From the IMG/VR virus record IMGVR_UViG_3300048580_000371: 64,000 bases of DNA; one strand, 5' to 3'. The position numbers and the translations under genes were made by a program. The notes below the pieces were generated by a model, which did no database searches, had not been told where the DNA came from, and was given only the letters and a program-made list of their open reading frames with translations. Shown here one piece after another: positions 395-62,534 of the stretch. How positions within the stretch are numbered: position 1 is the first letter of the stretch; each line of letters begins with the position of its first letter. This DNA is from an uncultured virus (IMG/VR IMGVR_UViG_3300048580_000371) (taxonomy: Duplodnaviria > Heunggongvirae > Uroviricota > Caudoviricetes).

Positions 395-1588
395 ATGAAC
401 ATCGAACAAGTAAAAGCAATTCTCGCCAATCCAGAAAACTTTCCCATTTCGGAAATTTTCAATCTATTAACCATTGCATCTGAGCGATATTATAACGCAG
501 TAGATGAAACAGAAATCCTTATGACAGATGCTGAGTTTGATTCGCTTGAGCGTTTCGCTCGTGTTCAAGACCCTACTAATGCATATTTCGTTGGTGTTGG
601 TTCCACTGTAAGAACAGGTAAAACCAATCTTCCATATCCAATGGGTGGATTGGACCAGTCATTTGAAGGTGACACTGTAAAGTTCGTTGATAGCAATGGA
701 CTTCGTGATAAAGCTTTTACTATTGCACAAAAAATGGATGGCACTTCTGCGATGATTATTTATGACGCAGAAGGGAATCTTCAAATTGGGTTTTCAAGAG
801 GGGATTCACAATCAGGGGCTGATATTTTTCGCCACCTTTCCAAGATGAAGAACCTTCCACAAAAGATCAATTGCAAAACTCCACTTGTCATTCGGGCAGA
901 AGTGGAAGTGAAGGAAGAATGGTTCAAAGCCAATCAGCATATTCTTCTAAAGTCAGATGGGACTCCTTATGCCAATGCTCGCAATTATGTTGCGGGTAAG
1001 ATGAATGCCAGTGAATCCCCACAAATTTTTTATGATAATGTTGATATTATCGCCTACACCATTATCTCTCCAGAGATGGAATACAAGGATTATGAACTAA
1101 AATTTTTGAAGAGTCTTGGGTTCACAGTGCCAGAATATTTTGTGTTGGATGGGCGAGAAATGAATGACGATATTCTTTCCAAAATCCTAAAGGACTGGCA
1201 TGAAACTTCCCCATGGGCATTGGATGGTGTTGTTTACACTGTTAATGATCGTAATGTTCAGCGGGAGATGATTGAGAATAAAAATGAGTCATCATCTTTT
1301 AAACCTTGTTTTGCCAGAAAATTTAAAATTAACCAATATGGTTCCATCACTACAGTTCGGGATATTGAGTGGAATCTTTCAAAACATGGGCAGTTAAAGC
1401 CTGTATTGGTTTTTGACCCAATCCTATTGTCAGGAGCAACCTGCACTCGTGCCACAGCATTTAATGCTGAGTTTGTTTATAAGAATAAATTGGGACCAGG
1501 GGCGACCATTGTGGTTGTAAGAAGCGGCGAAGTTATACCATTCGTTACTAAAATTATCACTCCAATGCCTGAACAAAATATGGGCTAA
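395..1588 (+). CDS. ligA: NAD-dependent DNA ligase, N-terminal part (Ia, adenylation, OB fold)
   Basis: YY...MTDAEFD, KMDG adenylation motif, SRGD, RAEV, ARN, DGVV, AxKF, ATAFN, RSGEVIP. Confidence 0.92.
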   Translation: MNIEQVKAILANPENFPISEIFNLLTIASERYYNAVDETEILMTDAEFDSLERFARVQDPTNAYFVGVGSTVRTGKTNLPYPMGGLDQSFEGDTVKFVDSNGLRDKAFTIAQKMDGTSAMIIYDAEGNLQIGFSRGDSQSGADIFRHLSKMKNLPQKINCKTPLVIRAEVEVKEEWFKANQHILLKSDGTPYANARNYVAGKMNASESPQIFYDNVDIIAYTIISPEMEYKDYELKFLKSLGFTVPEYFVLDGREMNDDILSKILKDWHETSPWALDGVVYTVNDRNVQREMIENKNESSSFKPCFARKFKINQYGSITTVRDIEWNLSKHGQLKPVLVFDPILLSGATCTRATAFNAEFVYKNKLGPGATIVVVRSGEVIPFVTKIITPMPEQNMG

Positions 1589-2927
1589 AATGATTTGAAA
1601 AATTAGTTTTCAATTCAACGTCTAATATTTGTACTAAATTATTAAATTGGGTATAAGGGATTCTAAATAACTTATACCCATTTTCTATAGCATATTTATT
1701 TTTTATTTGGTCATTGCTTTTTCTTTTTTCAAAATTTTCCAATATTTTTTCATTGGAAATATTTCCAGTAAAATTTACTGGTTTAAAATGATGGGCACCA
1801 TCATATTCGATTAAACAATTAAATTGTGGTAGATAAAAATCATAACGAAATTTATTTTTGGGGGCATTATTATTTGTTAAATATAATGGTTTGTCAAAAC
1901 TAAAAGTTATATTGTTTTTATTTAAAAAATTAATAATTATTTGTTCTCCTTTTGATATTTTTTTAGAACAACGTGGACAACCACTACCTCGCATATGGTG
2001 TGTTGGTGTTTGTTCAAATTTTCCATGTTTTGGGCATATTATTTTAATTTTAGTATAACTATTAACATATTCCACCAATGAATAATTATATTTATTATTG
2101 TGTACTTCATTGGAAACTTTTAAAAATTGTTTCAAAGGTAATCGTAAAAATAATGAAGAATTTTCATGTTGACAATTTATACAACCAGCTCCATATAAAT
2201 GATCAGATGGTCTTTGTTCGAAATCACCATGTTTTGGGCATGTTATGATGACCTTTGTGAATGAACCAACATATTTAACTTTTGAATAAGTATAAAAATT
2301 ATTATGAAGCTTAGATGCTTTATTGATAAATTCAGCATTTGAACAATTTTTATTTTCATTGGCACAATCAGGACAGCCTTGTTTTTTTAAATGCCCATTT
2401 GGTGTTTGTTCAAAATCACCATGAATTGGACATGTTATTATGACTTTTAAACACGATTTGACATATTTAACTTTTGAATAATCATAAAAATTATTATGAA
2501 TTTTTGACGCTCGGTCAATAAAATCTGTGGATGTTTTTTTTAGGTTCGAACATTTTTTACAACCAAACCCAAGTAAATGGCTGCGAGGGATTTGTTCAAA
2601 ATCACCATGAATTGGGCAGATTATTGTGACTTTCTTACTTGATTTTTCATAATTTACTTTTGAATAAATATAAAAATTATTATGAAGTTTCGTTGCTTTG
2701 TTAATGAACTCTGTAGTGTTTGATTTGTCTCTGTCATTGAAACATTTTTTACAACCATTACCATTTAAATGGTTTGGTGGTGATTGTTCAAATTCCCCAT
2801 GGGTTGGACATATTATTTTAATTTTTGTTTTATTGTTGGTGTAATCGGTCAAAGAATAATCATATTTATTATTATGTTTTAATGCTGCTCGTTCTTTAAA
2901 TTCTGCGTTTGTTATTTTCTTTGTCAT
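1557..2927 (-). CDS. homing endonuclease with tandem CPxHG/CxxC zinc repeats and C-terminal Vsr/DUF559-like PD-(D/E)XK domain
   Basis: Five IICPxHGxFEQxPxxHLxGxGCxxC repeats; SKGE...YDFYL...IEYDGAHH...RIPY. Confidence 0.85.
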   Translation of the reverse strand: MTKKITNAEFKERAALKHNNKYDYSLTDYTNNKTKIKIICPTHGEFEQSPPNHLNGNGCKKCFNDRDKSNTTEFINKATKLHNNFYIYSKVNYEKSSKKVTIICPIHGDFEQIPRSHLLGFGCKKCSNLKKTSTDFIDRASKIHNNFYDYSKVKYVKSCLKVIITCPIHGDFEQTPNGHLKKQGCPDCANENKNCSNAEFINKASKLHNNFYTYSKVKYVGSFTKVIITCPKHGDFEQRPSDHLYGAGCINCQHENSSLFLRLPLKQFLKVSNEVHNNKYNYSLVEYVNSYTKIKIICPKHGKFEQTPTHHMRGSGCPRCSKKISKGEQIIINFLNKNNITFSFDKPLYLTNNNAPKNKFRYDFYLPQFNCLIEYDGAHHFKPVNFTGNISNEKILENFEKRKSNDQIKNKYAIENGYKLFRIPYTQFNNLVQILDVELKTNFSNHFSPYFVQALE

Positions 2928-2931
2928 GATA

Positions 2932-3126
2932 TTATTTACCCCCATCGATGGAATTTAATTCATTGAATATTTCTGTCTCTCTTTTTAGACTTTCATACCA
3001 ACGAGCAGAAAGAATATCACGTTTCAAATCGTGTTGGTCTAAATCAAAGAAATAATCCTTTGTTGTTTTAGTTTGTATTTTTAATAATTCAGTTAAAATT
3101 TGTTTTCTTATATTTTTATTTGACAT
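2932..3126 (-). CDS. hypothetical protein in ligase insertion
   Basis: GGAGG RBS before ATG at 3126; coupled to the endonuclease. Confidence 0.55.
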   Translation of the reverse strand: MSNKNIRKQILTELLKIQTKTTKDYFFDLDQHDLKRDILSARWYESLKRETEIFNELNSIDGGK

Positions 3127-3143
3127 AATAATGTCCTCCACAG

Positions 3144-3239
3144 TATAAATAGTTAGTTACAAGAGAAAAGTGGGTTGTTCCACAGTCCATTTTGGGTGAT
3201 ATGAGCGTATCATCCAAATCTCTTGTAATATTATTTATC
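3144..3239 (-). promoter_or_regulatory. structured endonuclease-leader element with convergent late-promoter motifs (divergent copy)
   Basis: TATAAATA (+, 3144) and GATAAATA (-, 3232-3239) flank stem TTACAAGAGA/TCTCTTGTAA enclosing two hairpins. Confidence 0.6.
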
Positions 3240-3259
3240 ATTTTATTCAAAAAGTGGGG

Positions 3260-3523
3260 TCAAATAGGTGAAAAATCTCGCTTTTTTAATTTATATTTTT
3301 CCCTACTTTTCTTATTAATTTCATCTTTATTTTTGTCATAATATCGTTTTGATATTTCGTTGCGATTTTTCGCAGGTTTAGTGTTGAATATTGTTTTTTG
3401 ACATTCAATGCAAACACCACCTCCTGTGTATCGTTCAGATATATGCCCATTTTTACAAGGTTTCCCTGTAAAATATTTTTCCAATAATAATTCTTGTGCT
3501 TGTTTTCTTGTGATGATTTCCAT
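3260..3523 (-). CDS. HNH-endonuclease-associated Zn domain protein (probable truncated endonuclease)
   Basis: YFTGKPCKNGHISERY...CIEC motif typical of N-termini of phage HNH proteins; no catalytic domain follows. Confidence 0.6.
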   Translation of the reverse strand: MEIITRKQAQELLLEKYFTGKPCKNGHISERYTGGGVCIECQKTIFNTKPAKNRNEISKRYYDKNKDEINKKSREKYKLKKRDFSPI

Positions 3524-3584
3524 TGACAATCCCTCGTTTGTTTGATATAACTATTTAGTATAATTATTTAGATGGAGTTAAAAA

Positions 3585-4385
3585 ATGACAACCACTTATG
3601 AACAAAAATATGATGCTTGGTTCCATTCACAGTTATCTCGATTCGGGAATTATCATTGGACTGATACTGGTGTTGATTTGGAACTTGATAATCCAGAAAA
3701 CAGCCCAGAAGTTGCAATCAAGCAGATGATTTCGTTTTTCGCCGGTATTGGGGCTGAATTTCTTTCTGAAAAAAGTTTTGAAACATTATATGGGCTTGGT
3801 TTTACCACCATTGAATCCATTATTAATTCTTCTCCTGATGAAATTGAAAAAGCTCTTGGTAGTAAAATTGGTCGTAAGGGAATGGAAAGTATTGCGTCCA
3901 AATTAAATCCAATTCCACTTTGGAAGTTATTGGGTTCATCTCCTGTATTTAAAAATGGGATAGGTCGTAGGAAGATGAAATTAATTTATGAACATCATGG
4001 GAAAATTTTAGGGCTTTCTATTGCAGAAATAAAGGCTGTGGGTGGCTTTGAAGAAAAAACAGCCACACAGGTATACAATGGTTTTGCAGAAGCAGCAGCC
4101 TTCTTAACCGCTATTGCGGGCAAGTATACAGAAGAAGTGGCTGTACAGAAGGGTTCGAGCCTAACTGGTAAAACATTCGTCTTCACAGGTTTCCGTGATA
4201 AGGAAGCAGAGTCCATCATTGAAAGTCATGGTGGTAAAATTGGTTCCAGTGTATCCAAGACAACAACATATCTGGTCACTAAAGAGAAAAACTCTACTTC
4301 ATCTAAAGCAGTCAAGGCACAAAGCATTGGTGTGACTGTGATTGGATCTGCAGAGTTGAATGATTTATTGGATGGATTAAAATAA
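3585..4385 (+). CDS. ligA: NAD-dependent DNA ligase, C-terminal part (HhH + BRCT)
   Basis: HhH-like GIG/GFEEKTA motifs; BRCT LTGKTFVFTGFR...GGKIGSSVSKTTTYLV...SSKAVKAQSIGV; own GGAG RBS. Confidence 0.88.
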   Translation: MTTTYEQKYDAWFHSQLSRFGNYHWTDTGVDLELDNPENSPEVAIKQMISFFAGIGAEFLSEKSFETLYGLGFTTIESIINSSPDEIEKALGSKIGRKGMESIASKLNPIPLWKLLGSSPVFKNGIGRRKMKLIYEHHGKILGLSIAEIKAVGGFEEKTATQVYNGFAEAAAFLTAIAGKYTEEVAVQKGSSLTGKTFVFTGFRDKEAESIIESHGGKIGSSVSKTTTYLVTKEKNSTSSKAVKAQSIGVTVIGSAELNDLLDGLK

Positions 4386-5813: not shown

Positions 5814-6049
5814 TAAAATATAAATATAACCCAGAAGAAATATTAGCAGAACGTTTTTTTAATCTGAAAACAGTACTGATATTTTTTATTTTATGGATAA
5901 TTATATTTGCCACAGTTATAGGAATAACTAATTATACAAAAATAAATTATATTATTGACATTAAACTGCAGTGTGATTCGTTGGGCATACCATTGGATGA
6001 ATGTGAAAAAATATGGGAAGCCAATCCACCATTAGTAACTCCACCATAA
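5810..6049 (+). CDS. hypothetical membrane protein
   Basis: One hydrophobic segment. Confidence 0.5.
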   Translation: MIKYKYNPEEILAERFFNLKTVLIFFILWIIIFATVIGITNYTKINYIIDIKLQCDSLGIPLDECEKIWEANPPLVTPP

Positions 6050-6063
6050 AAGAAAGGTGAAAT

Positions 6064-6327
6064 ATGAGGCATCCATTTGAAGAAACCATTATTGGATTAA
6101 CTGGTTTACCACCATTTCATAATTATGCAGGTGATTATTGGGATGCAATAGTTAGCGTTGAAAAACTATCAAAGGTTGGCATTCATATGAAAATTGATTA
6201 TGAAGAAATTTTTGATATGTGTTTTTATTTTGGTGAGACTGCTGTTGGGAAATGGTGTGTTATTGGTAGTGACGTTTATTTTGAAAAATCAGAAGATGCT
6301 ATAATGTTTAGATTGAAATTCGCTTGA
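6064..6327 (+). CDS. FKLRW-motif family protein
   Basis: ends YFEKSEDAIMFRLKFA. Confidence 0.75.
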   Translation: MRHPFEETIIGLTGLPPFHNYAGDYWDAIVSVEKLSKVGIHMKIDYEEIFDMCFYFGETAVGKWCVIGSDVYFEKSEDAIMFRLKFA

Positions 6328-6352
6328 CAATTTTTAAAAATCACCCTATGCT
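6324..6352 (+). promoter_or_regulatory. sigma70-like promoter
   Basis: TTGACA-17 bp-TATGCT. Confidence 0.6.
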
Positions 6353-6364
6353 AAAATTTCAACA

Positions 6365-6652
6365 TTGAAAGGGTTTGTTGTGAAAATCAAATCAAAGTAT
6401 CCTTGGAAAAGCACAGAACTTTATAGAAACTGTTGGAAGATATATTTTTTGGAAGTTGGTTGGTTAACTTTTGTGGCAACATCAACCCAAGACAGTGATG
6501 ATGGAGAAATCCTTATCAATGAGGTGAAGATTTTTGATCAACTTAAATTTTTTAATCCACCCATTACCTTTAGTGAATTGGACGAAAAAGTTGATATGGC
6601 AATGGATGTAATTTTTTCAGAATGGTTGACGATGAAAAGTAAAAATATTTAA
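6365..6652 (+). CDS. hypothetical protein
   Basis: ORF downstream of promoter. Confidence 0.55.
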   Translation: MKGFVVKIKSKYPWKSTELYRNCWKIYFLEVGWLTFVATSTQDSDDGEILINEVKIFDQLKFFNPPITFSELDEKVDMAMDVIFSEWLTMKSKNI

Positions 6653-6660
6653 AAAAGATG

Positions 6661-6689
6661 TTGCAATGGTGATAAATATCTGGTAGTAT
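6661..6689 (+). promoter_or_regulatory. sigma70-like promoter P1 of ncRNA island
   Basis: TTGCAA-17 bp-TAGTAT; shares ATCTGGTAGTATGATTATATTGAATGA with P2. Confidence 0.7.
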
Positions 6690-6931
6690 GATTATATTGA
6701 ATGAGAGAGAAAGTGAAGTTTAGAAATCTGGTTCTTGTCTAACTATAGCGACCACGACAAGGTTATTGAGGTGATGGTCCGAAGCCTCTTCCGATTCAAT
6801 TTATTAGTTAAATCCCCAATGTCCTTGGGTTCTGTGATGAACAGGTAAAACAGGTTTTGTCCGCAGGTGGGAATGGGGAACTGATATAATCTTTTAGCAT
6901 TTTTAACTCCAATATCAGTTCCCCAAAGACG

Positions 6932-7049
6932 TTTAGGTATTTTTAAAGACGAAGGTTGTCAAAGACGTTCCTTTTGGTTTGGATTTTTCATCTTTCCCTT
7001 GTGGATAGATTAGCTCAAAAATAGAGCGTCGTCTTTAAAAATATCTAAA
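6932..7049 (+). ncRNA. circularly permuted tRNA-like RNA
   Basis: 21-bp closing stem; inside: AGGTT, degenerate T-arm, looped acceptor-like stem ATCTTTCC/GGATAGAT, TA, D-arm GCTC-AAAAATA-GAGC, G. Confidence 0.5.
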
Positions 7050-7059
7050 TAGAATGACG

Positions 7060-7236
7060 TTTTTATTTTTAACGATGGTTGTAAGATCAATAGTAGAGAG
7101 TGTCGCCCCTCGTAAAGTCGCAAGACTTTCCCGTAAAGGACGGTTCAATGCTGGGGCATATAGGTGGAATTATCCCATTTTCCATCTTGACAGGGCTGAA
7201 GGTGCAAGTCCTTCCGACTATCGTTAAAAATAAAAA
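7060..7236 (+). ncRNA. tRNA-like RNA with large structured insert in place of the anticodon loop
   Basis: 22-bp closing stem incl. acceptor ATGGTTG/CGACTAT, D-loop-like AATAGTA, stem TGTCG/TGACA, T-arm GAAGG-TGCAAGT-CCTTC. Confidence 0.55.
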
Positions 7237-7251
7237 AGTTTAAAAAAGTAG

Positions 7252-7280
7252 TTGACAACGTTTTAAAAATCTGGTAGTAT
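7252..7280 (+). promoter_or_regulatory. sigma70-like promoter P2 of the large RNA
   Basis: TTGACA-17 bp-TAGTAT preceded by A-tracts. Confidence 0.8.
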
Positions 7281-7315
7281 GATTATATTGAATGACACAA
7301 CAAGGAGTGAATGAA

Positions 7316-7411
7316 ATGTTTAGTTTTCTTATGTCTCGTGTAGACGCAGCTTGGGTGATGTTTGTTTCCAATGTTACCCCTGTTCTTGTGGCAGTAACGA
7401 GTTTGTTTTAA
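7316..7411 (+). CDS. possible 31-aa hydrophobic leader peptide
   Basis: AAGGAG at 7302-7307, 8 nt to ATG; MFSFLMSRVDAAWVMFVSNVTPVLVAVTSLF*. Confidence 0.35.
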   Translation: MFSFLMSRVDAAWVMFVSNVTPVLVAVTSLF

Positions 7412-8019
7412 AAGTTAAAAACCGAGGAGCAGGTAGCACTCAGAAGCCCAGGAAATCATATGTTTGGAGACAGTGCGAATCCGGTAAGCATATGACGGTC
7501 TGGCTCGTCCGGAACAAGCCTCGAACCGGGTGGAGGAACGATATCCTCCAAATTAAGGCGCAGGAGTCTTCCGCCTAAATCCGAAGGCACCATCCCGCAA
7601 GGGAGCCAACGAGAATACCACGTAGTAGTGAGAATCGTGGGGCTAAAGTCGACTTCACTCCCCAGGCAGGTGTGCAACACCGTAAGCCCTACAGGATTTG
7701 TTTGTATGAAGCACGAGCGCTGGCTGTGAGTCCCAACGTTGAAATGGACGACACTCAGTAGTAAGATGGGGTAGATGCGTTGTATACCTTCTTAGGGTTC
7801 GCTCCTAAGACTTCACAATTCAGCAGGTGTAACACCGTAAGTCTGATAAAATTTTGGATAACTGGTTGGAGGAACCAGTCGCTACAAAAAACCTCCATAG
7901 GCAAGGTCTCGATTGTGAGCGACTCTGAGGAGGCGAGTTCAAGGTGGGATCGGTTGTGGCGGCGGGTAAATGGAAACATGGGGGCCAGCACAACGTAGTA
8001 GAGATTTGTAGTTTGGTGT

Positions 8020-8090
8020 GTTGATGGTGGCTGACGGAAGACGCCCTGCCCTGACCGGGTGAGATATTGGTTCAATTCCAATCTTCAACT
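8020..8090 (+). tRNA. degenerate tRNA-like module embedded in the large RNA (loop CCCTGAC, nominal CUG)
   Basis: Acceptor GTTGATG/CTTCAAC, canonical T-arm ATTGG-TTCAATT-CCAAT; weak D-arm, no U33, no CCA. Confidence 0.35.
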
Positions 8091-9008
8091 TGAATGACGA
8101 TTCAAACACCAAAGTTTTTAAATCGCAATGAAAGTTGCGTCCCATCACGATCCTGCTGAAATGGATGGTGGGCACCCGCTGAAAGGCGACACTGTGTTAA
8201 CTTGGGTAATAGGTGAGCAGGAGGTTGGTTTTATAGTGTAGGCCAGCTTTAAAAGGCTGGTGGACTGCACTATAGAGATTGAAGAGGCAAAGGTCCACTG
8301 TTATGGTGGAAGAAGTCTGAAAGCGATGGTGGGGGCTGTTTGGACAAAAGAATGTGAGGCGTGTTGGGTACCTTCATACTGCCACTGTTGATTCCACTTT
8401 GATCTAGACAAAGTGTTGAGGAGGTGGGTGTCCCTGAATAACCAACATTGTGGAAGATGACCCGCCACAGTTGCCAAAGGGTTGGAGTTTTGGGGATATT
8501 GTGTTAGTATGTCAGGTATTATATATCTGTGCATGAACATATGATTATACACAATAACCCCATTTTAAACATGGTGCTTGGTTTGGCATCTGTCCATGGA
8601 ACGACTGGGAAACCTTCTGTAAGCAATCCTTGGAACAAATCTGCAGATCGATGGTAGTGGGACACGAATCCATCATCTTGTAAAACAAAGTGTGTCTCTG
8701 CATTTGGTGAGCGTGAGATACCATTTCATCAAATGTAAAACAAAGTGTATCTCCCTAACTGAGACGACTGGCGGTCAACAATGTTGGGAAAAACACACAG
8801 CCAGATGCGTTAGTTGAGATGACACATCAACATTTGGGTTTGCCGACAGGACTCCCCACCAAAGTTGAGCGTCAACTAACATTATGGGGTAGTTTGGCTA
8901 TGGAGGGCTGATGTCTCCCAGGTCGTTACGTTCAAGACCTGTTGATTAGTAGGATTATTTTGTCCAACCAATCATAAAGCAGCTTGTCCCTGTAGACTTT
9001 TATTTTTA

Positions 9009-9042
9009 GAAGGAGGTGGGGAAAACTCCACCTCCTTTTTAT
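9009..9042 (+). terminator. rho-independent terminator
   Basis: AAGGAGGTGG-GGAAAACT-CCACCTCCTT followed by T-run. Confidence 0.85.
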
Positions 9043-9061
9043 ATTTGGAAAGGAAATTAAA

Positions 9062-9847
9062 ATGGATAAAGATCTGTACGGAGACCGTATGAAGGGATAT
9101 GAATCTAAAGAACGATTCATGCCATATCTCCCTGTAGTTGCAAGACTTGATGGAAAAGGTTTTAGTAAGTTCACCAAGGGTCTAAAACGCCCCTATGACG
9201 AGCGTATGATAACCCTTATGACAGAAACTGCAAAATACCTTGTGGACAAAAGTAATGCAGTGATTTCACTAAATCAAAGTGATGAAATAACGTTAATTTT
9301 TCGCCCAGAAAATGTATTCTTTGATGGTAAGGTTCAGAAAATGACTTCTGTTCTTGCAAGTATGGCTACAGCTAAATTCAATGAATTAAAGGCTACCATG
9401 CTACCAGAGAAGGCTGCTACATTGGCTGTATTTGATTGTAGGGTGTTCGCTGTGCCGAATGAAACAGAGGCCAGTAACGCATTGTTATGGCGGGTTCATG
9501 ATTGTGTTAAAAATGCAATATCCATGGCTGCACATCATTATTTTGGACATGCGAGAACGATGAATTTGACTGGTAAGGAAAAGCAGGAAAAACTTTTCCA
9601 AGAAGCAGGGGTAAACTTTAATGATTTTAAAAAATCATTTAAAGAAGGTGTTTTTTGTCGTCGTGTTTTGAAAGAAATTGCGATTGATGATGAAACTTGG
9701 GATAAAATTCCAGATAAACATAAACCAGAAAGCAGGGTTGTGTTGCGTCATGCAATTGAAGAGATTGAAATGCCAATTTTCACAAAGGTAATTAATCGTA
9801 ATGATGTTATCTTTAGAAGTGCTGAACCAAAAACTGCTGAAATATAA
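9062..9847 (+). CDS. tRNA(His) guanylyltransferase Thg1-like protein (3'-5' polymerase)
   Basis: RMKxYE, VARLDGKGFSKFT, QSDEITL, FDGKVQKMTS, FDCR, WRxxDCxKNAI. Confidence 0.92.
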   Translation: MDKDLYGDRMKGYESKERFMPYLPVVARLDGKGFSKFTKGLKRPYDERMITLMTETAKYLVDKSNAVISLNQSDEITLIFRPENVFFDGKVQKMTSVLASMATAKFNELKATMLPEKAATLAVFDCRVFAVPNETEASNALLWRVHDCVKNAISMAAHHYFGHARTMNLTGKEKQEKLFQEAGVNFNDFKKSFKEGVFCRRVLKEIAIDDETWDKIPDKHKPESRVVLRHAIEEIEMPIFTKVINRNDVIFRSAEPKTAEI

Positions 9848-9861
9848 AATATTTGATAAAT

Positions 9862-9890
9862 AAGGGAAGGGAAACCTTCCCTTCTTTTTT
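9862..9890 (+). terminator. rho-independent terminator overlapped by late promoter
   Basis: AAGGGAAGG-GAAA-CCTTCCCTT + T-run; GATAAATA at 9855-9862. Confidence 0.8.
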
Positions 9891-9902
9891 GGAGATACTA
9901 TT

Positions 9903-10127
9903 ATGCGTTTAAAAGATTTAATGGAAAATATTGATGATAAAGTTAGAATAGCTGTTGATTCATTTGGGCGTACTTTAAAAAGTCTTACTGTTGGTTCTGA
10001 AGAAGACCAAGATAATATCCTTCATGCAAAATTTGGTCAACTTTCTAAAAATATGACTGAAGATGAAAAGATTGCATTCGCTGATGAACTTAAACGAAAA
10101 TTCAAAATAACAGATTTAAACGATTAA
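9903..10127 (+). CDS. hypothetical late protein, CTS-like N-terminus
   Basis: MRLKDLME; GGAG RBS. Confidence 0.65.
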   Translation: MRLKDLMENIDDKVRIAVDSFGRTLKSLTVGSEEDQDNILHAKFGQLSKNMTEDEKIAFADELKRKFKITDLND

Positions 10128-11002
10128 AATCTTTCAAACATTCCCATCATCATACTTAAACGAAGATGTTTCAAATGGGTAGGATAAGGACCATGGGTTT
10201 TAATATATTCAACAATTTCTGGATATTGTTTTCCATATATGACTAAAAATGCCATCATCATCATTTCATCATTAAAATCAGTAATGCATTTTAAAACATC
10301 TTCTTTTTTGGTTGGGTCATATCCACAACGTTTGATTAATTGTGGTAATAATTGTTGTGTTTTTTTAATATCTTGAAGTTCTTGTTCTTGTTCTTTGTTT
10401 ATTCTATCTAAATCAATTTCGTGTTCAGATGGCTCATGCTCTTGTATTGGACGTTTTTCTTCAATGATGTTTAATATTTTGACTTTGTATTTTCCTGGTT
10501 TCACTATCACTTCATTTTCTTTAGTGGAATATGCCAATGCCCATCTTGGAGCATTATTTAAATCTGCTAAAATCATTGATGGTTCAAAAGTACATTGCAC
10601 CAACATTCCAATGCCAATTAAATCTCCTTCAAAAATTTCTGCATCATCATAATCATCATCTGTGAATGGTTCGTGAGCCATACTATTCCATGATGGGGTT
10701 GAGAATTTTTTACCTTGTTCAATATTGGTTGTCCAACTTTGTGGTGTAGACGAATTAATATTAAAAGACATGCCTTTTTTAATTTTTTCAAATGGTTTTT
10801 TCATTTTATCCAAGAATTCGTCTTTGTCATGGAATTTAAATCCACGATAAAGCGTGTATTGACTATTATTAACTGTTTGTGCTAAATCTTCAACTACTTC
10901 TGGTTTCATAATTTGGGTTGCAGTTGGCAATCCTTTAGTCCAATGTTTTAAAATAACTTCAGTTTCAAATGATATTGATTCGTTTAATTCTTTGTATTTC
11001 AT
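10124..11002 (-). CDS. putative ADP-ribosyltransferase (R-S-E type), CTS-like N-terminus
   Basis: LYRG...QSWTT...ENEVIV; begins MKYKELNE. Confidence 0.6.
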   Translation of the reverse strand: MKYKELNESISFETEVILKHWTKGLPTATQIMKPEVVEDLAQTVNNSQYTLYRGFKFHDKDEFLDKMKKPFEKIKKGMSFNINSSTPQSWTTNIEQGKKFSTPSWNSMAHEPFTDDDYDDAEIFEGDLIGIGMLVQCTFEPSMILADLNNAPRWALAYSTKENEVIVKPGKYKVKILNIIEEKRPIQEHEPSEHEIDLDRINKEQEQELQDIKKTQQLLPQLIKRCGYDPTKKEDVLKCITDFNDEMMMMAFLVIYGKQYPEIVEYIKTHGPYPTHLKHLRLSMMMGMFERF

Positions 11003-21541: not shown

Positions 21542-21630
21542 TAAATAAGTATAGCGGGTTGATAGATACGACTAATATCCATCAACAGGCACCAAGGAGG
21601 ATACCTCTTTCCGCTACAATGTTATTTATA
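21542..21630 (+). promoter_or_regulatory. structured endonuclease-leader element (copy A)
   Basis: TAAATA-TAGCGG-[GTTGAT..ATCAAC]-AGGCACCA-[AGGAGG ATA CCTCTT]-CCGCTA-TATTTATA. Confidence 0.75.
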
Positions 21631-21654
21631 CAACAACCAAGGAGAAATGTCAAA

Positions 21655-22626
21655 ATGAATACAGATCTAATAATTTTTCAAGGCACCCAAAATATCATAA
21701 CAGATAATAACATTGATTATTTGGATTTAGTTTGGAAAATGTCCAATAAATCAAAATATGCCAAGTGGTATATGGGGATAATTAAAAAAGCACAAAATAG
21801 AAACATTGAAACAAGAAAAATTGCTAAAGAAAAAATAGGATATGTTGAACAACATCATATAGTTCCTGTATCGTTGGGTGGTGATAATTCTAAATTAAAT
21901 TTAGTATTTTTAACATCTAAAGAGCATTTTATTTCCCATCATTTATTAATAAAAATGTTCTCTTTTGGTATATTTAAAGAAAAAATGAATCTTACATTAT
22001 GGGCATTTATAAATAAAAATAATAATAAAGTGACAGCCAAAACATTTTCTTTAATACGAGAAATTAAAAGTATATCTATGCTTGGCAATTCGTTAGCTAA
22101 AAATAATAAACATACAGAAGAAGGCAACTCGCGAATTTCAAAAGCAATGAAGGGTAATCAACATGCCAAGGGGGCAATTAGATCTGAAGAACAAAAATTG
22201 GCACATTCTTTACTGATATCGGGCGAAAATCATCCAATGTTTGGAAAGGGACATTCACAAGAAACTAAAGATAAAATGTCTATTGCGAAATCAGGCGAAA
22301 ATCATCCAATGTTTGGGAAAGAACACTTACCAGAAACTAAAGATAAAATGTCTATGGCACAAAAGGGTGAAAAAAATCACAGATTTGGTAAAGTTAGTTG
22401 TTTTAAAGGAAAAACACACACCACAAAAACAAGAGAAATAATGAAACAACAACGACAAATACAAACTAAAAGAGAAACAGCATTAATTAATATGTTAGAA
22501 GAGTGGTTGGTAAATAATATTTTGCCAATGGATATCGTTTATCAAGGAAAAAGAAAAGGACATTATGAAAAATTATTTTATGCTAAAGAATTGGTAAAAA
22601 GAGGAATCATAGCCATTTTAATTTGA
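21655..22626 (+). CDS. HNH homing endonuclease with NUMOD3-type repeats
   Basis: EQHHIVPVSLGGDNSKLNLVFLTSKEHFISHHLL; SGENHPMFGKxH..ETKDKMS repeats. Confidence 0.85.
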   Translation: MNTDLIIFQGTQNIITDNNIDYLDLVWKMSNKSKYAKWYMGIIKKAQNRNIETRKIAKEKIGYVEQHHIVPVSLGGDNSKLNLVFLTSKEHFISHHLLIKMFSFGIFKEKMNLTLWAFINKNNNKVTAKTFSLIREIKSISMLGNSLAKNNKHTEEGNSRISKAMKGNQHAKGAIRSEEQKLAHSLLISGENHPMFGKGHSQETKDKMSIAKSGENHPMFGKEHLPETKDKMSMAQKGEKNHRFGKVSCFKGKTHTTKTREIMKQQRQIQTKRETALINMLEEWLVNNILPMDIVYQGKRKGHYEKLFYAKELVKRGIIAILI

Positions 22627-34072: not shown

Positions 34073-34296
34073 CCTTTACTCCATTTTAATACCAACATTA
34101 TGGCTTCTTCGTTGGTTTTATATTTTTTCTCCACTAAAGTATTTGCCCATTGTTGTATTGTCAAACATATTTTCCCATCAATATACCAAAGAAAATTATC
34201 ATTACATTTTACTGCAGGTCCATCTTCACAATGTAATAATCCATCCTTATAGTGTCTGAACAAAGCATTGCTTTGATGCCAACCATTTCTTGCCAT
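34069..34296 (-). CDS. HRxDGPA-repeat protein with LVLKW helix
   Basis: LHCEDGPA; YKTNEEAIMLVLKW. Confidence 0.7.
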   Translation of the reverse strand: MARNGWHQSNALFRHYKDGLLHCEDGPAVKCNDNFLWYIDGKICLTIQQWANTLVEKKYKTNEEAIMLVLKWSKG

Positions 34297-35393
34297 TAAC
34301 CAGCCCCAAAAACGTTATTGATTTGGGCAGTTACTTGTACAAACGTTGCCCGTTTTGGCATTTCTTTAATGGTTCGTGCGCCCATATATGTGGCTGCAGA
34401 ATTCAACCCACCAAGGATTTCAGAGATAGTATTCTTGACTGGACCACGATATGGGACATCAACAGACTTACCTTCAGATGCCCGATATTCCTTTAATCCA
34501 CCATTATATTTTTCCATGGCTTCTTTACTGGACATACCATATGCACGTTTGAATTTTTTTACTTCAACAATCTGCTTATCATTTTCGTCCAATTCATTGG
34601 TAAGGAACCGCTTGGTGATAATTTCACCACCAGACTCATCATGCCCAGCGAACATCCCACCAACCATCGTGAAATCAGCACCACCAGAATAGGCTTTAGC
34701 GAAGTCACCAGGGACTGTCAACCCACCATCTGCACAAACCATGCCACCAACACCATGGGCAGCATCTGCACATTCAATAACAGATGATAGTTGTGGATAA
34801 CCAATGCCTGTGACTTTGCGGGTAAGACAAAATGCCCCAGGACCAATACCAATTTTTACCACAGATACACCAGACAAAATCAATTCTTCAGTCATTTCTG
34901 GTGTGACAACGTTGCCAGCCATAACCGCAATATTGGGGAATTCATCTTTGAACCGTTTGATAAAATCAACGAATGATTGCTGATAACCATTGGCAACATC
35001 AATACAAATTTTGTTTGGTTGTAGTTCAGTTGGCAATAGTGAATTGACTGTGCGAAGTTTTTCCATATCTTTCTCAACCAAACCAATACTATACCAAGTA
35101 TTTCCAGTCACTGTGGAAGACTCATTCTTCCAAAAATCAATTAAAGTTTCAACGTCATAATGTTTGTGAATGGCTGTCATACAAGAATGTTCTGATAGTG
35201 CCTTTGCCATCTCAAGGGTACCTGATGAATCCATATTGGCTGCGATGATTGGGGTACCTTGCCATTCAACAGTGGAGTGTAGGAACTTGAATTTGCGAAC
35301 CAACGATACCTCTGAACGAGATGATAGGGTTGACCGTTTTGGTACAAGTAGAACATTTGAATAATCGAGCTTGACGCCATCTTGAAACCGCAT
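34296..35393 (-). CDS. guaC: GMP reductase
   Basis: VLLVPKRSTLSSRSEVSL, IIAANMD, CIDVANGY, KIGIGPGAFCLTR, GYPQLSSVIECADAAHG, YRASEGK; TTGACA-17-TATGAT upstream. Confidence 0.95.
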   Translation of the reverse strand: MRFQDGVKLDYSNVLLVPKRSTLSSRSEVSLVRKFKFLHSTVEWQGTPIIAANMDSSGTLEMAKALSEHSCMTAIHKHYDVETLIDFWKNESSTVTGNTWYSIGLVEKDMEKLRTVNSLLPTELQPNKICIDVANGYQQSFVDFIKRFKDEFPNIAVMAGNVVTPEMTEELILSGVSVVKIGIGPGAFCLTRKVTGIGYPQLSSVIECADAAHGVGGMVCADGGLTVPGDFAKAYSGGADFTMVGGMFAGHDESGGEIITKRFLTNELDENDKQIVEVKKFKRAYGMSSKEAMEKYNGGLKEYRASEGKSVDVPYRGPVKNTISEILGGLNSAATYMGARTIKEMPKRATFVQVTAQINNVFGAG

Positions 35394-37889: not shown

Positions 37890-39101
37890 TTACTCCTTTA
37901 AATCGTTAATAAATTTGATAGCATCTTTATCTGTTTTACATTGCCCAAGAATATGCCCTTTAATATGTTTTTCAATCTTAGTATCATCTTGATTATTAAT
38001 TGCAAACATATAAAGTGGGAAGTTTTTAAAATCCTTCCAAATTTTTGCAAATTCTGATTTATCATTTTTGTTGGTAACATCACCTGTGAAAGTGTTTTTA
38101 ACTTTAATGACATCAGATACAGTAGCATTGAAATATGCAGACACCTTTTCATATACTTCAATCATACGATCTCTAATGTCACCTGTTACCATAAGAGAAA
38201 TTGCATCATCAATGGTTTCATCAATGGTCATTTCAACATACATACGGTCCCCACGCTGTTTTTCAATAAAATGACGATGCATGTTTTCATACCAATTTGT
38301 TTTGACTTTGATAAGAGTTCCGTCAGAAAAACGAACAACCCAACCTTCAACATTTTTAGATGTTTTCTGAAAATCAATTAGGTTATCAATAGACATTGAA
38401 CTTGGAAATTTGAACAAATCAGTAGTATTTTTAGTATCAATGTCCTGATAATTGATTACTTGAGAAATCCTCATGGAAGCAATAATATCTGTCATATTTT
38501 TGAATTCACCAGTTTTTTCATGTCGAATTTGTACAACACGAAGCTCGGGTTTTTCATATTTCAATACAATTTCATTGTCAGGTCCAATCATTTCACAAAT
38601 AATTGCATAGTTGTTATCTGGACCATTTTTATGAAGATGTGCCTCAATATAATCTTTAAGATATTTACTTTTGTGAAGAAGTTCCAACGCCATTTCGCAA
38701 TGTGGTCCAACAGCAGAACCCTTGGACTTTGCAATAATACGACCATTTGGGAGGCGAATGAACCGAATGAGTGACCCATCCAATTTTTCGGTGATTTCAA
38801 CGATTTGTTTATCTTTGACATCATTGTACATGGCACCATTAGTCTGATTCAAACACCAAAATTTAGGGAGCATTAGATAACGATGATATAGACCATTATC
38901 TTCAACAAAAGTCAAACCCCGAAGTTCAAGAGCATTAATGGTTTTGTTCCCCTTGATAGGCTCCATGAAATCTTGATAACCAGGCAAACGATAGTTGAAA
39001 GTATGGATTTTATATCCATCAATTTCTTCAATTGTATGCTTGAAAGCATCATTCGCTGCAACAATTGCAACAGAATCTTCAAATGTGGGTAGATAAGTCA
39101 T
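37890..39101 (-). CDS. RNA ligase 1 (T4 Rnl1-like)
   Basis: FNYRL, ELRGLTF, KFW, TEKLDGSLI, CEMIGPDNEIV, EGWVV, KVKTNWY. Confidence 0.88.
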   Translation of the reverse strand: MTYLPTFEDSVAIVAANDAFKHTIEEIDGYKIHTFNYRLPGYQDFMEPIKGNKTINALELRGLTFVEDNGLYHRYLMLPKFWCLNQTNGAMYNDVKDKQIVEITEKLDGSLIRFIRLPNGRIIAKSKGSAVGPHCEMALELLHKSKYLKDYIEAHLHKNGPDNNYAIICEMIGPDNEIVLKYEKPELRVVQIRHEKTGEFKNMTDIIASMRISQVINYQDIDTKNTTDLFKFPSSMSIDNLIDFQKTSKNVEGWVVRFSDGTLIKVKTNWYENMHRHFIEKQRGDRMYVEMTIDETIDDAISLMVTGDIRDRMIEVYEKVSAYFNATVSDVIKVKNTFTGDVTNKNDKSEFAKIWKDFKNFPLYMFAINNQDDTKIEKHIKGHILGQCKTDKDAIKFINDLKE

Positions 39102-39149
39102 AATGGGTGAAACTCCTTGAATTTCACCCATTATAGCAGTTTTTAAAAA

Positions 39150-42515: not shown

Positions 42516-42604
42516 GATAAATAAGTATAGCGGGCAGTTGAATGCTTCACTATTCAACTGCAGATACCAAGGAGGATATCCTTTCCGCTATAACTGTATT
42601 TATA
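42516..42604 (+). promoter_or_regulatory. structured endonuclease-leader element (copy B)
   Basis: GATAAATA-TAGCGG-[GCAGTTGAAT..ATTCAACTGC]-AGATACC-[AAGGA..TCCTT]-CCGCTA-TATTTATA. Confidence 0.75.
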
Positions 42605-42628
42605 ACAAAACACGAGGAGAATGTCAAA

Positions 42629-43756
42629 ATGGTTAAATTTAATAAGACTGATTTTATTAAAAAAGCAGAAAAAATACACAATAAAAAATATAATTATTCA
42701 TTGGTTGATTATATAAATTCTCAGATCAAAATTAAAATTATATGTCCAATTCATGGTGATTTTGAACAAAAACCAGCACACCATTTACGAGGACAAGGCT
42801 GTGTAAGATGTGCTGGTTTGGAACGAAAAACAACAGAACAATTTATTAAAGAAGCATCAAAAGTTCATAATGGAAAGTATGATTATTCATTAGTTAATTA
42901 TAAAAATAGTGATACTAAAGTTAAAATTATATGCTCAATTCATGGTGAATTTGAACAAAACCCAGACAATCATGTTAATAAAAATATAGGGTGCCCAAAA
43001 TGTTCTAATGAAAAAAAAAGTTTGAAAATGCTATCATCAACAGAAGAATTTATAAAAAAAGCCAATATTATTCATAATAATTTTTATTCATATGAAAAAT
43101 CACAATATATTTCAGCAAGAGATCAAATATTAATAACTTGTCCAAAACATGGGGATTTCAGCCAAACAGTTGATACACATTTGAGTGGGGCTGGGTGTTT
43201 TGAGTGTGGCAAACAAAAAATAGTTAATTTTTTTTCATTAACACAAGAAGAATTTATACAACGAGCCAAAATTGTTCATGGTAATTTATATTCATATGAT
43301 AAGGTTGTTTATATTAAAGGAAAAAATAAAGTAATCATTACTTGTCCAGTTCATGGGGATTTTCATCAATTGGCTGTTAATCATTTATTAGGTAGGGGTT
43401 GCCCTGTGTGTAATTCATATTCAAAAGCAGAAGAAATAATGGTAAGAATTTTAAATAAATATAATATTAATTTTCAATATCAAAAAACGTTTGAAAACTT
43501 TCGAAATAAAGATACTGGTTATCTATTAAGATTTGATTTTTATTTTCCATTAATAAATACTATAGTTGAATATGATGGAAAACAACATTTTGAACCAATT
43601 GAATATTGGGGAGGGTTGAAAAATCTAAAATTAATTCAAGAACGAGATAAATTAAAAAGCGATTATTGTTTAAAAAATAATATTAATTTATTAAGAATAT
43701 CTTATAAAGACAAACATAAAATCGAAGAAATATTAATAATGAATGGGATTATTTAA
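42629..43756 (+). CDS. homing endonuclease with CPxHG zinc repeats and Vsr/DUF559-like domain
   Basis: Four repeats; LRFDFYF...VEYDGKQHF...LLRISY; paralogue of 1557-2927. Confidence 0.85.
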   Translation: MVKFNKTDFIKKAEKIHNKKYNYSLVDYINSQIKIKIICPIHGDFEQKPAHHLRGQGCVRCAGLERKTTEQFIKEASKVHNGKYDYSLVNYKNSDTKVKIICSIHGEFEQNPDNHVNKNIGCPKCSNEKKSLKMLSSTEEFIKKANIIHNNFYSYEKSQYISARDQILITCPKHGDFSQTVDTHLSGAGCFECGKQKIVNFFSLTQEEFIQRAKIVHGNLYSYDKVVYIKGKNKVIITCPVHGDFHQLAVNHLLGRGCPVCNSYSKAEEIMVRILNKYNINFQYQKTFENFRNKDTGYLLRFDFYFPLINTIVEYDGKQHFEPIEYWGGLKNLKLIQERDKLKSDYCLKNNINLLRISYKDKHKIEEILIMNGII

Positions 43757-62418: not shown

Positions 62419-62442
62419 TTTGACATTTCTCCTTGGTTGTTG

Positions 62443-62534
62443 TATAAATAACATTGTAGCGGAAAGAGGCATCCTCCTTGGTGTCTGTTGATGGATACGC
62501 TAATATTCATCAACCCGCTATAATGTTATTTATC
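62443..62534 (-). promoter_or_regulatory. structured endonuclease-leader element (copy C)
   Basis: 18/19-bp terminal inverted repeat ATAAATAACATT(G/A)TAGCGG enclosing two hairpins. Confidence 0.78.

Follow-up and report, generated by a model that had tools for sequence, protein, structure and literature searches.

The locus lies in a 64,000-nt stretch of DNA from an uncultured phage (the whole stretch is called the window below), the phage context of which is clear. Positions 7287-9042 are a real non-coding transcription unit (unit 2), bracketed by a promoter at 7252-7280 and a terminator hairpin at 9008-9039. It is preceded by a second non-coding stretch (unit 1) and followed by a gene of the Thg1 family (Table 1).

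Table 1. Features of the non-coding locus and the gene downstream of it (positions in the window).
Feature	Position	Strand	Description
Promoter block copy, head of unit 1	6650-6704	+	TTGCAA-17-TAGTAT with TG
Non-coding unit 1	6697-7250	+	strong self-complementarity, long helices, e.g. 7059-7082 / 7216-7240
Candidate 31-codon ORF	7316-7411	+	hydrophobic peptide; AAGGAG 8 nt before ATG; stop codon 7409-7411
Optional module 1	7412-7546	+	long hairpin 7445-7505 (centroid fold); 135 nt exactly skipped in contigs of DNA runs X4 and X5
5' core	7547-8005	+	duplicated modules M2 and M3; AGUA-GNRA sites at 7624, 7757 and 7997
Optional tRNA-like module	8006-8119	+	helix 8012-8019 / 8106-8113 around cloverleaf 8020-8090 and a small hairpin
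Middle core	8120-8415	+	two GAAA hairpins; repeat CTGAAANNGATGGTGGG at 8156 and 8317; long hairpin 8232-8274
AT-rich stretch	8416-8566	+	hairpin 8491-8562 (inverted repeat)
3' core	8567-8994	+	direct repeat TGTAAAACAAAGTGTNTCTC at 8679 and 8734; deepest part in both RNA libraries
Intrinsic terminator	9008-9046	+	14-bp stem (9008-9039), 7 G-C pairs, 4-nt loop, then T run
Thg1-family gene (tRNA-His guanylyltransferase)	9062-9847	+	Pfam PF04446 (6.1e-34); PHROG 4717 (3e-73)

A sequence-only reading had described one unit that runs from a near-consensus promoter (7252-7280) to a strong terminator (9009-9042) and is richer in GC than the genome, and we found all three features. The promoter is of the host type; it consists of TTGACA and TAGTAT with a 17-nt spacer, an extended -10 TG and an A-rich tract upstream, and has 10 of the 12 consensus letters. 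Such sites are common here, since the region 6000-10500 contains 19 of them (12.0 +/- 4.2 in shuffles). On the plus strand, the only terminator-like site between the promoter and the terminator is a weak one at 7353-7379. The GC content is 0.463 in 7287-9007 vs 0.317 across the window, about 5 SD at the peak, and all 500-nt segments with a GC content of at least 0.44 lie inside 7101-8700 (maximum elsewhere 0.434). The unit is bracketed as proposed, but it is not isolated, since its promoter block recurs upstream.

The two copies of the promoter block (6650-6704 and 7241-7295, 55 nt, 84% identity) are positioned 591 nt apart and share an exact 27-nt match (6678-6704 = 7269-7295), while none of 100 shuffles gave a match. 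The upstream copy heads unit 1, which has no ORF longer than 62 codons. Its minimum free energy (MFE) corresponds to a z-score of -4.3 to -4.4 and none of 100 shuffles folded equally well; among the tested non-coding stretches, unit 1 alone folds clearly below shuffled sequence. In one DNA relative two stretches are missing, 6724-6809 and 7087-7208; the latter forms the interior of this unit's long helix. Outside the promoter block we observed no significant similarity between the two units (best local score 20 vs a null of 21.8 +/- 1.8). Because they are alike only in that block, the idea that the module 7087-7208 is a homologue of M2 and M3 in unit 2 was dropped. Neither a second copy nor extended complementarity was found elsewhere in the window.

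All six frames of unit 2 are closed by 16-37 stops each. Every frame contains all three kinds of stop codon, with at least three of each kind, so the recoding of a single stop would open no frame and we ruled stop-codon recoding out. The longest ORF has 108 amino acids and lies on the minus strand; no homologue of it was found among 5.8 billion proteins, and the three longest ORFs of the unit matched none of the PHROG families. This agrees with the earlier description of short, non-phage-like ORFs only, and the conserved protein-coding signal that would have spoken against a non-coding RNA was absent from the six frames, the PHROG families and the proteins searched.

Conserved cores (7547-8005, 8120-8415 and 8567-8994) alternate within the unit with replaceable parts (7412-7546, 8006-8119 and the sequence upstream of 8567). 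The modules M2 (7612-7700) and M3 (7745-7857) are duplicates of each other; 54 columns of their alignment are invariant, and M3 carries a 29-nt insertion. The recurrent GTAGTA was recovered at 7622, 7758 and 7995, and 10 of 1000 shuffles reach three copies. The longer motif AGTAGNRA occurs three times in the unit vs 0.27 expected from shuffles, 3 of 1000 of which reach this number. Across the window it has 16 sites, four of them on the plus strand within 7092-8004. The long hairpin claimed at 8232-8273 was found as well, at 8232-8274.

The replaceable parts were recognized by comparison with relatives in DNA runs X4 and X5. Among these relatives we observed three clean module indels within or beside the unit. 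In the X5 relative a single A stands in place of all 114 nt of 8006-8119, with the enclosing helix gone too, and an X4 contig has 22 unlike letters immediately before 8567. Among the matches listed (23 of 44 contig pieces), the non-coding sequence of X4 showed 25 differences over 1204 nt and its flanking genes 51 over 699 nt, and the same comparison in X5 gave 8 over 758 nt and 30 over 974 nt; the divergence is 1-2% in the locus vs 3-7% in the neighbouring genes. An X4 contig in the 3' core has 3 differences in 231 nt and an X5 contig over 8173-8348 has none. Mosaic recombination among strains could also be the source of the lower divergence, and the contigs could come from several genomes. 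The phage was found in lake samples from four different studies. In 20 further sequencing runs 8-23% of the sampled words were present; these are word counts only and were not used as evidence.

RNA libraries from two freshwater studies (X2 and X3) contain contigs 100% identical to 7379-7672, 7479-7640, 7645-7795, 8583-8994 and 8607-8990, so the absence of a transcript, which would have spoken against the RNA, is not the case here. These are assembled contigs, which give no strand, ends or continuity, and their ends may reflect strain variation. The 8583-8994 contig belongs to X2 and has a depth of 7.6, with the 5' part in the same library at 2-2.7. In X3 the 8607-8990 contig has a depth of 169 and the 5' part 12.8. 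The two parts of the unit are therefore 3- to 13-fold apart, with the 3' part deeper in both libraries. The contigs of the two studies end at 8994 and 8990, which is at most a weak hint at a 3' end and is explained equally well by strain variation downstream. Neither library has a contig on 6000-6754, 7796-8582 or 9020-10500. The DNA runs cover most of these stretches, and missing cover is not evidence.

As the sequence-only reading had proposed, we scanned the locus against Rfam; the 4227 covariance models include GOLLD, ROOL, tRNA, OLE, HEARO, raiA, group I and II introns, RNase P, tmRNA and rRNA, and no known family matched. The GOLLD and ROOL models gave no match at the gathering score over the whole window and none at E <= 10 in 6500-9300, 7400-8450 and 8400-9050. 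The sole Rfam matches were to unrelated small families with E of 0.28 to 8.4, far under the gathering scores; the best of them, a Moco riboswitch (E 0.28), was really the terminator hairpin.

Searches for divergent homologues, also proposed earlier, found none in the phage, IMG/VR, JGI metagenome and GTDB collections. By blastn no record among 50,697 phage records matched the unit at E 1e-5. At E <= 1 there were only 26-57-nt matches to the promoter region 7226-7280 (E 0.2-0.7), mostly where no gene is annotated, two in terminal repeats and one under a hypothetical protein. Pattern scans of IMG/VR gave no match with four of five motifs and none with a sixth pattern. An unspecific 15-mer hit at least 120 chance loci in IMG/VR, none of them alike by BLAST, and the seven loci among JGI metagenome contigs were all chance. 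In GTDB genomes both a Thg1-anchored scan and a two-motif pattern gave nothing. Two huge phages with a Thg1 gene had no similar RNA anywhere in their records (0/2), and their Thg1 flanks are dissimilar. For polB, the relatives in IMG/VR reach only 44-51% identity, so those collections in effect lack this lineage. A full-text literature search found no published description of this RNA.

Next to this we weighed how the transcript would fold. The bracketing by one promoter and one strong terminator with a single weak internal site (7353-7379), the GC enrichment, the repeated modules, and the local GNRA and long hairpins could all belong to one mature RNA of ~1.7 kb whose 5' and 3' ends would pair to close a single ornate fold, and which would be a giant relative in kind of GOLLD and ROOL. 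The nested complementarity proposed for the ends (7333/8933, 7350/8910, 7364/8901 and 7373/8886) does exist, with a duplex of -39.3 kcal/mol, but it does not exceed chance: when the remaining RNA was shuffled with its dinucleotides preserved, the 5' segment found an equal or better duplex in 158 of 200 cases. In the real sequence this segment has a better partner at ~8765 (-41.2), and the full-length MFE structure lacks the end pairing. Moreover, the 5' arm of the closing helix sits in the candidate small ORF 7316-7411. The three GNRA hairpins were found where they had been described (7593-7604, 8124-8139 and 8177-8188), but they are not enriched (5 in 6697-9007 vs 2.62 +/- 1.63; 67 of 500 shuffles reach 5).

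The z-scores of the MFE are +0.27 for 7547-8005, -2.0 for 8120-8420 and -0.76 for 8567-8994, which resemble those of the coding controls (-1.2 and -2.0) and for the domains lie near zero. Segments of 150 nt had a mean z of -0.89 in the locus vs 0.06 and -0.41 in the flanks, and by the strand asymmetry of the folding energy the locus was not separable from the coding controls. The unequal depth of the 5' and 3' parts in both RNA libraries also speaks against a single molecule. Every relative seen is 95-100% identical, so that only few substitutions are visible for a structural comparison. One giant ornate fold for 7287-9042 is unproven, and we consider it unlikely.

The proposed module with a T arm at 8020-8090 was confirmed by ARAGORN, which at default settings called a tRNA-Val(GAC) with a perfect T arm there and made no default call in 200 shuffles. 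The MFE structure of 8006-8119 is the cloverleaf within its enclosing helix (fold z -0.11). The call could also mark a tRNA pseudogene in a decaying tRNA island, that is a former tRNA array without function whose strong promoter is still active. The Rfam tRNA model did not match the cloverleaf at E <= 10, and the cloverleaf departs from a canonical tRNA by a U.U pair in the acceptor stem, a C.A pair in the anticodon stem and a C at position 37. Relaxed ARAGORN settings gave six cloverleaf-like calls vs 1.14 +/- 1.0, a number reached by none of 100 shuffles, and the X5 relative dispenses with the module. In a related huge phage (L002, LR745206.1), 13 tRNAs lie within the 4.5 kb that precede the Thg1 gene.

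However, the minus strand accounts for two of the six relaxed calls, and an HMM that we trained on the 13 real tRNAs of L002 found no match in the unit. BLAST with each of these tRNAs gave only 9-13-nt matches with E >= 0.008. Neither the internal duplications nor the enrichment of AGUA-GNRA is typical of tRNAs, and a functionless remnant would hardly diverge less among strains than the neighbouring genes or reach such a high depth in the RNA libraries. We find a decaying island unlikely. The default settings found no tmRNA and no further tRNA gene in the window, so there is no tRNA island in it; permuted tmRNA, intron-bearing tRNA-His and tRNA-Glu calls of the relaxed search were rejected for their poor stems.

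The promoter might instead serve an mRNA for the 31-codon hydrophobic ORF, perhaps with other micro-ORFs, the rest being a long 3' UTR or spacer. This ORF has AAGGAG ahead of its ATG at 7316, another ORF of 31 codons, with AAGGA, is found at 7148, and the deletion of 7412-7546 in the relatives begins exactly after the stop codon. AGGAG occurs six times in the unit, however, a mild enrichment (20 of 1000 shuffles have as many; for GGAGG 37 of 1000), so one copy ahead of this ATG is unsurprising. Behind the upstream copy of the promoter, the homologous position lacks an ORF of this kind. Since the ORF takes up 96 of ~1750 nt and would leave the GC content, the conservation and the depth of the 3' part unexplained, we regard an mRNA as very unlikely.

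The Thg1 gene begins 15 nt past the T run of the terminator, with no promoter-like site between, and has 739 relatives, the best of them 92% identical. An Rnl1-type RNA ligase is encoded in the same window. Of six other Thg1 loci, tRNAs adjoin the gene only in L002; the five without tRNAs were assessed by ARAGORN (L001) or by annotation within 3 kb (the other four). None of the six has an RNA similar to unit 2, and the link between the RNA and Thg1 has little comparative support. That the unit is a cis-acting leader of Thg1, which would sense e.g. uncharged or damaged tRNA and set the read-through at 9008-9039, fits the close spacing but is highly improbable, since no riboswitch or T-box model matched (the best was the Moco match to the terminator hairpin), the X4 and X5 relatives have unlike sequence just upstream of 9047/9052, five other Thg1 loci lack such a leader, and 1.7 kb far exceeds known leaders, none of which to our knowledge comes near this length.

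We consider it rather probable that a widespread freshwater jumbo phage here carries a transcribed, selectively conserved and modular locus for non-coding RNA. From the proposal of a new class of large structured phage RNA we retain the non-coding character, the phage origin, the lack of a known family, the tRNA-like module and the presence of RNA; the single structured fold was not borne out. Host RNA polymerase would make one primary transcript from the promoter at 7252-7280, which would be cut into pieces of unequal stability. In strains that carry the tRNA-like module, which some lack, the cutting would likely fall to RNase P and RNase Z. The stable pieces may, like GOLLD and ROOL, be abundant RNAs with a function in trans. 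Given the Thg1 gene that comes next and the Rnl1-type RNA ligase encoded in the window, their likeliest targets would be tRNA or the translation machinery. Thg1 itself would be expressed only through read-through of the terminator.

A bolder version seems improbable to us: that the whole of 7287-9042 is one mature RNA of ~1.75 kb, about twice GOLLD and the largest structured non-coding RNA known from a phage. It would be built of duplicated modules with sarcin-ricin-like AGUA-GNRA hairpins, might form a higher-order particle with the tRNA-like module as optional cargo or handle, and could act on the tRNA pool of the host together with the Thg1 and the RNA ligase of the phage.

Phage RNAs freed by processing are known from the tRNA cluster of T4, in which the stable RNAs C and D (species 1 and 2) of ~120-140 nt are transcribed together with tRNAs and then cut free by the enzymes of tRNA processing; their function is unknown. 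The processing model for unit 2 would follow that of RNAs C and D, which differ in their small size and in lying among eight genuine tRNAs.

The locus is new and looks comparable in kind to GOLLD and ROOL. One report describes both as phage RNAs near tRNA islands and as recently shown RNA-only cages, ROOL as abundant as 16S rRNA, and GOLLD with a 3' region that is conserved, a 5' region that varies and, in some cases, tRNAs in a linker (PMC12286853). Unit 2 shares with GOLLD (>800 nt, phage or prophage) that it is large, phage-encoded, from lake samples and abundant in RNA data, with the 3' region more conserved or abundant and the 5' region variable, and a tRNA occurs in the linker of some GOLLD RNAs just as a tRNA-like module is optional in unit 2. 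It differs in being about twice as long, in giving no match to the GOLLD model even on short sub-stretches at E <= 10 and in showing neither a covariation-supported structure nor signs of a compact fold or of oligomers. ROOL, by the same account, is likewise an abundant phage RNA, often near tRNA islands, but its model does not match and the window has one tRNA-like call and no island. The lncRNAs of Staphylococcus phage K are abundant too and are likened by their authors to GOLLD and ROOL by abundance and proximity to tRNA genes (PMC9241854). Unit 2 shares with them that it is an abundant non-coding phage transcript, but it is similar to no record of the phage collection save for the weak promoter-region matches.

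Large abundant phage non-coding RNAs such as GOLLD and ROOL are few and functionally obscure, and a further unrelated example would widen the class. Even if unstructured, the locus would be an unusual GC-rich, conserved and highly represented non-coding transcript in a phage of 32% GC. Its natural deletion variants would form a series for locating the functional core.

The phage is a large T4-like or jumbo phage, AT-rich (GC 0.317 in the window), whose polB shares 45-48% identity with its counterparts in Atu_ph07, Phosso and PA5oct. In the window, 2.4 kb without a credible ORF separate a gene ending at 6652 from the Thg1 gene. Unit 2, the stretch studied here, starts behind a near-consensus promoter and ends in a strong terminator (see table), as the sequence-only reading had claimed. 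It is also GC-richer than the window as a whole (0.463 in 7287-9007 vs 0.317), and 500-nt windows with a GC of at least 0.44 are confined to this locus (maximum elsewhere 0.434). A second copy of the 55-nt promoter block lies upstream (6650-6704; 84% identity, including an exact run of 27 nt). None of 100 shuffles yielded such a match, therefore the locus consists of two tandem units.

The expectation of only short, non-phage-like ORFs held as well. The longest ORF of unit 2 (108 aa, minus strand) had no homologue among 5.8 billion proteins, and the three longest gave no PHROG families. Since each of the six frames contains 16-37 stops, with at least three of each kind, stop reassignment opens no frame. 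A protein-coding gene, standard or stop-recoded, was rejected because of these stops and the absent homologues.

Parts of the locus were present in public freshwater and lake runs, four of which we compared with 6000-10500. RNA-library contigs from two different studies (X2 and X3) were 100% identical to the window; the presence of unit 2 as RNA is real. These are assembled contigs, which do not give strand, ends or continuity and whose ends may reflect strain variation, and the X3 library holds only 3.96 million letters.

Two DNA runs (X4 and X5) contain relatives 95-100% alike. In both, the non-coding locus diverged less than the flanking genes, by counts resting on 23 of 44 contig pieces, and mosaic recombination or mixed strains could be behind part of this contrast. 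The conservation of the locus is real. Both relatives skip 7412-7546, while in X5 a single A replaces 8006-8119, so that the tRNA-like module and its enclosing helix (8012-8019/8106-8113) are gone. The relatives carry unlike sequence before 8567 and before 9047/9052. Few substitutions were listed and they are anecdotal: through G7216A a predicted U.G pair becomes U-A, C7119T makes a U.G pair out of C-G, and the remaining ones lie in loops or would disrupt predicted pairs.

Coordinates and measurements of the features at the locus and in its surroundings
Feature	Position	Strand	Detail
Unit 2	7287-9042	+	downstream, larger share of the 2.4-kb ORF-free gap
Unit 2 promoter	7252-7280	+	TTGACA-17-TAGTAT with TG, 10/12
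Unit 2 terminator	9008-9039	+	14 pairs (7 G-C), then T run
Candidate 31-codon hydrophobic ORF	7316-7411	+	AAGGAG site
5' core	7547-8005		MFE z +0.27
Middle core	8120-8415 (folded as 8120-8420)		MFE z -2.0
3' core	8567-8994		MFE z -0.76
Skipped segment	7412-7546		MFE z +0.16
Segment with tRNA-like module	8006-8119		MFE z -0.84
Two coding controls			MFE z -2.0 and -1.2
X3 RNA contig	7379-7672		depth 12.8
X2 RNA contigs	7479-7640 and 7645-7795		depth 2-2.7
X2 RNA contig	8583-8994		depth 7.6
X3 RNA contig	8607-8990		depth 169
X4 differences			non-coding locus 25/1204 nt; flanking genes 51/699 nt
X5 differences			non-coding locus 8/758 nt; flanking genes 30/974 nt
Thg1 gene	9062-9847	+	Pfam match 6.1e-34
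NAD-ligase, adenylation and OB domains	395-1588	+	
NAD-ligase, HhH and BRCT domains	3585-4385	+	
HNH/DUF723 homing-endonuclease ORF	1557-2945	-	between NAD-ligase halves

We lean towards reading the locus as a transcribed, conserved and modular non-coding RNA locus, new at family level, in which optional inserts separate the conserved cores and accumulation is highest for the 3' core. The host polymerase would make the primary transcript, which may be processed, possibly at the tRNA-like insert, into abundant trans-acting products as in GOLLD and ROOL. According to passages of PMC12286853, GOLLD and ROOL are of phage origin, highly abundant, conserved at the 3' and variable at the 5' side, and occasionally carry linker tRNAs; our locus is like them in phage origin, abundance and layout, and carries an optional tRNA-like module. 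It would add to the large, abundant phage non-coding RNAs, an already known kind. Full-text searches and passages gave no description of this RNA, and candidates in an IMG/VR-based catalogue of viral structured RNAs average 67 bases in the passages available.

No known family was recognised. At gathering scores, none of the 4227 families of Rfam 15 matched anywhere in the window, therefore GOLLD, ROOL, OLE, introns, RNase P, tmRNA and tRNA were not assigned; sub-stretches gave just unrelated sub-threshold matches (E of at least 0.28). We found no homologue of the locus in the phage collection, IMG/VR, JGI metagenome contigs, GTDB genomes or the complete records of two huge phages that carry Thg1. 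The lineage itself is almost absent from the searched collections, where Thg1 reaches at most 44% identity and polB 44-51% in IMG/VR, so the lack of homologues says little about the spread of the RNA.

Of the proposed new or expanded class of large structured phage RNA, the non-coding nature, presence as RNA and lack of an Rfam family stood, but not the structured fold. A single giant fold with paired ends is doubtful. The nested complementarity of the ends exists (duplex -39.3 kcal/mol), but an equal or better duplex for the 5' segment arose in 158 of 200 dinucleotide shuffles of the remaining sequence, the real RNA offers it a better partner elsewhere, and the pairing is absent from the full-length MFE. 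GNRA-capped hairpins are present (five) but not enriched (2.62 +/- 1.63 in shuffles; 67 of 500 reach five). The mean z of 150-nt windows was -0.89 in unit 2 vs 0.06 and -0.41 in the flanks, with the strongly negative windows of unit 2 containing the terminator or the long hairpins 8232-8274, which had been noted earlier, and 8491-8562. Strand asymmetry of folding energy was uninformative for the locus. Thermodynamics therefore backs no ornate unit-2 fold, although one may exist, and a 1.7-kb ornate structure has no support so far.

Unit 2 does contain repeats. Modules 7612-7700 and 7745-7857 are duplicates with 54 invariant columns, the latter carrying an inserted 29-nt hairpin. An AGUA-GNRA motif, presumably similar to a sarcin-ricin or loop-E hairpin, is present three times in unit 2 (7624, 7757 and 7997) and once in unit 1 (7092). 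Of the 16 sites in the window, these four lie on the + strand inside 0.9 kb, and just 3 of 1000 shuffles equalled the unit-2 count.

ARAGORN called tRNA-Val(GAC) at 8020-8090 (default call in 0/200 shuffles), and the T arm noticed earlier is perfect. A genuine tRNA is contradicted by a U.U pair in the acceptor, a C.A pair in the anticodon stem, a C at position 37 and the absence of an Rfam tRNA match at E <= 10, as well as by the dispensability of the module in X5. Relaxed ARAGORN made six calls in 6650-9060 (1.14 +/- 1.0 in shuffles; 0/100 reach six), with poor stems and two on the minus strand. An HMM built from 13 genuine tRNAs of a phage found no match at the locus, and a decaying tRNA island seems improbable.

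That unit 2 is a long-tailed mRNA encoding a micro-protein is quite unlikely. Its candidate 31-codon ORF has an AAGGAG site, but AGGAG occurs six times in unit 2 and the ORF is missing behind the upstream promoter copy. A second candidate 31-codon ORF with an AAGGA RBS-like site (7148-7243) lies within a unit-1 module absent from one relative.

Thg1 starts 15 nt past the T run, no promoter-like site was found between and Thg1 is probably expressed by terminator read-through. The RNA-Thg1 association has little comparative backing, with 13 tRNAs upstream of Thg1 in LR745206.1 and protein-coding surroundings without tRNA at the other five of six further phage Thg1 loci (ARAGORN for one, annotation within 3 kb for the others). 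That unit 2 is a Thg1 leader is very improbable.

Unit 1 (6697-7250), the upstream non-coding neighbour, is strongly self-complementary (MFE z = -4.3) and shares no significant similarity with unit 2 apart from the promoter block. Behind its promoter copy lie three long AT-rich helices. Segments 6724-6809 and 7087-7208 are absent from a DNA relative, the latter, skipped in X4, being the interior of the helix 7059-7082/7216-7240. No X2 or X3 contigs were seen on unit 1, where an uncovered part is not evidence of absence. A 646-nt X2 RNA contig (depth 20) from another organism shares just 7232-7256 (the promoter's A-rich upstream and -35 portion) and the 18-nt unit-1 piece 6831-6848, while the remainder differs; the contig may represent a related locus in another phage.

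The window also encodes an Rnl1-type RNA ligase (37890-39131; PHROG 562, 2e-39), which together with Thg1 looks like a tRNA-repair toolkit; despite both, the 64 kb contain no canonical tRNA gene. The top GC outside the RNA locus belongs to a dehydrogenase gene (34296-35393; PHROG 9582, 8.5e-113) that may be a recent acquisition. An NAD-dependent DNA ligase is split across 395-4385; its halves are also separated by about 640 nt lacking any clear gene, and Rfam matched no group I or group II intron there. The window holds five homing-endonuclease-like ORFs, HNH and others (1557-2945, 21559-22626, 42542-43756, 52510-53475 and 61306-62472), including two pairs that share PHROG families 559 and 655.
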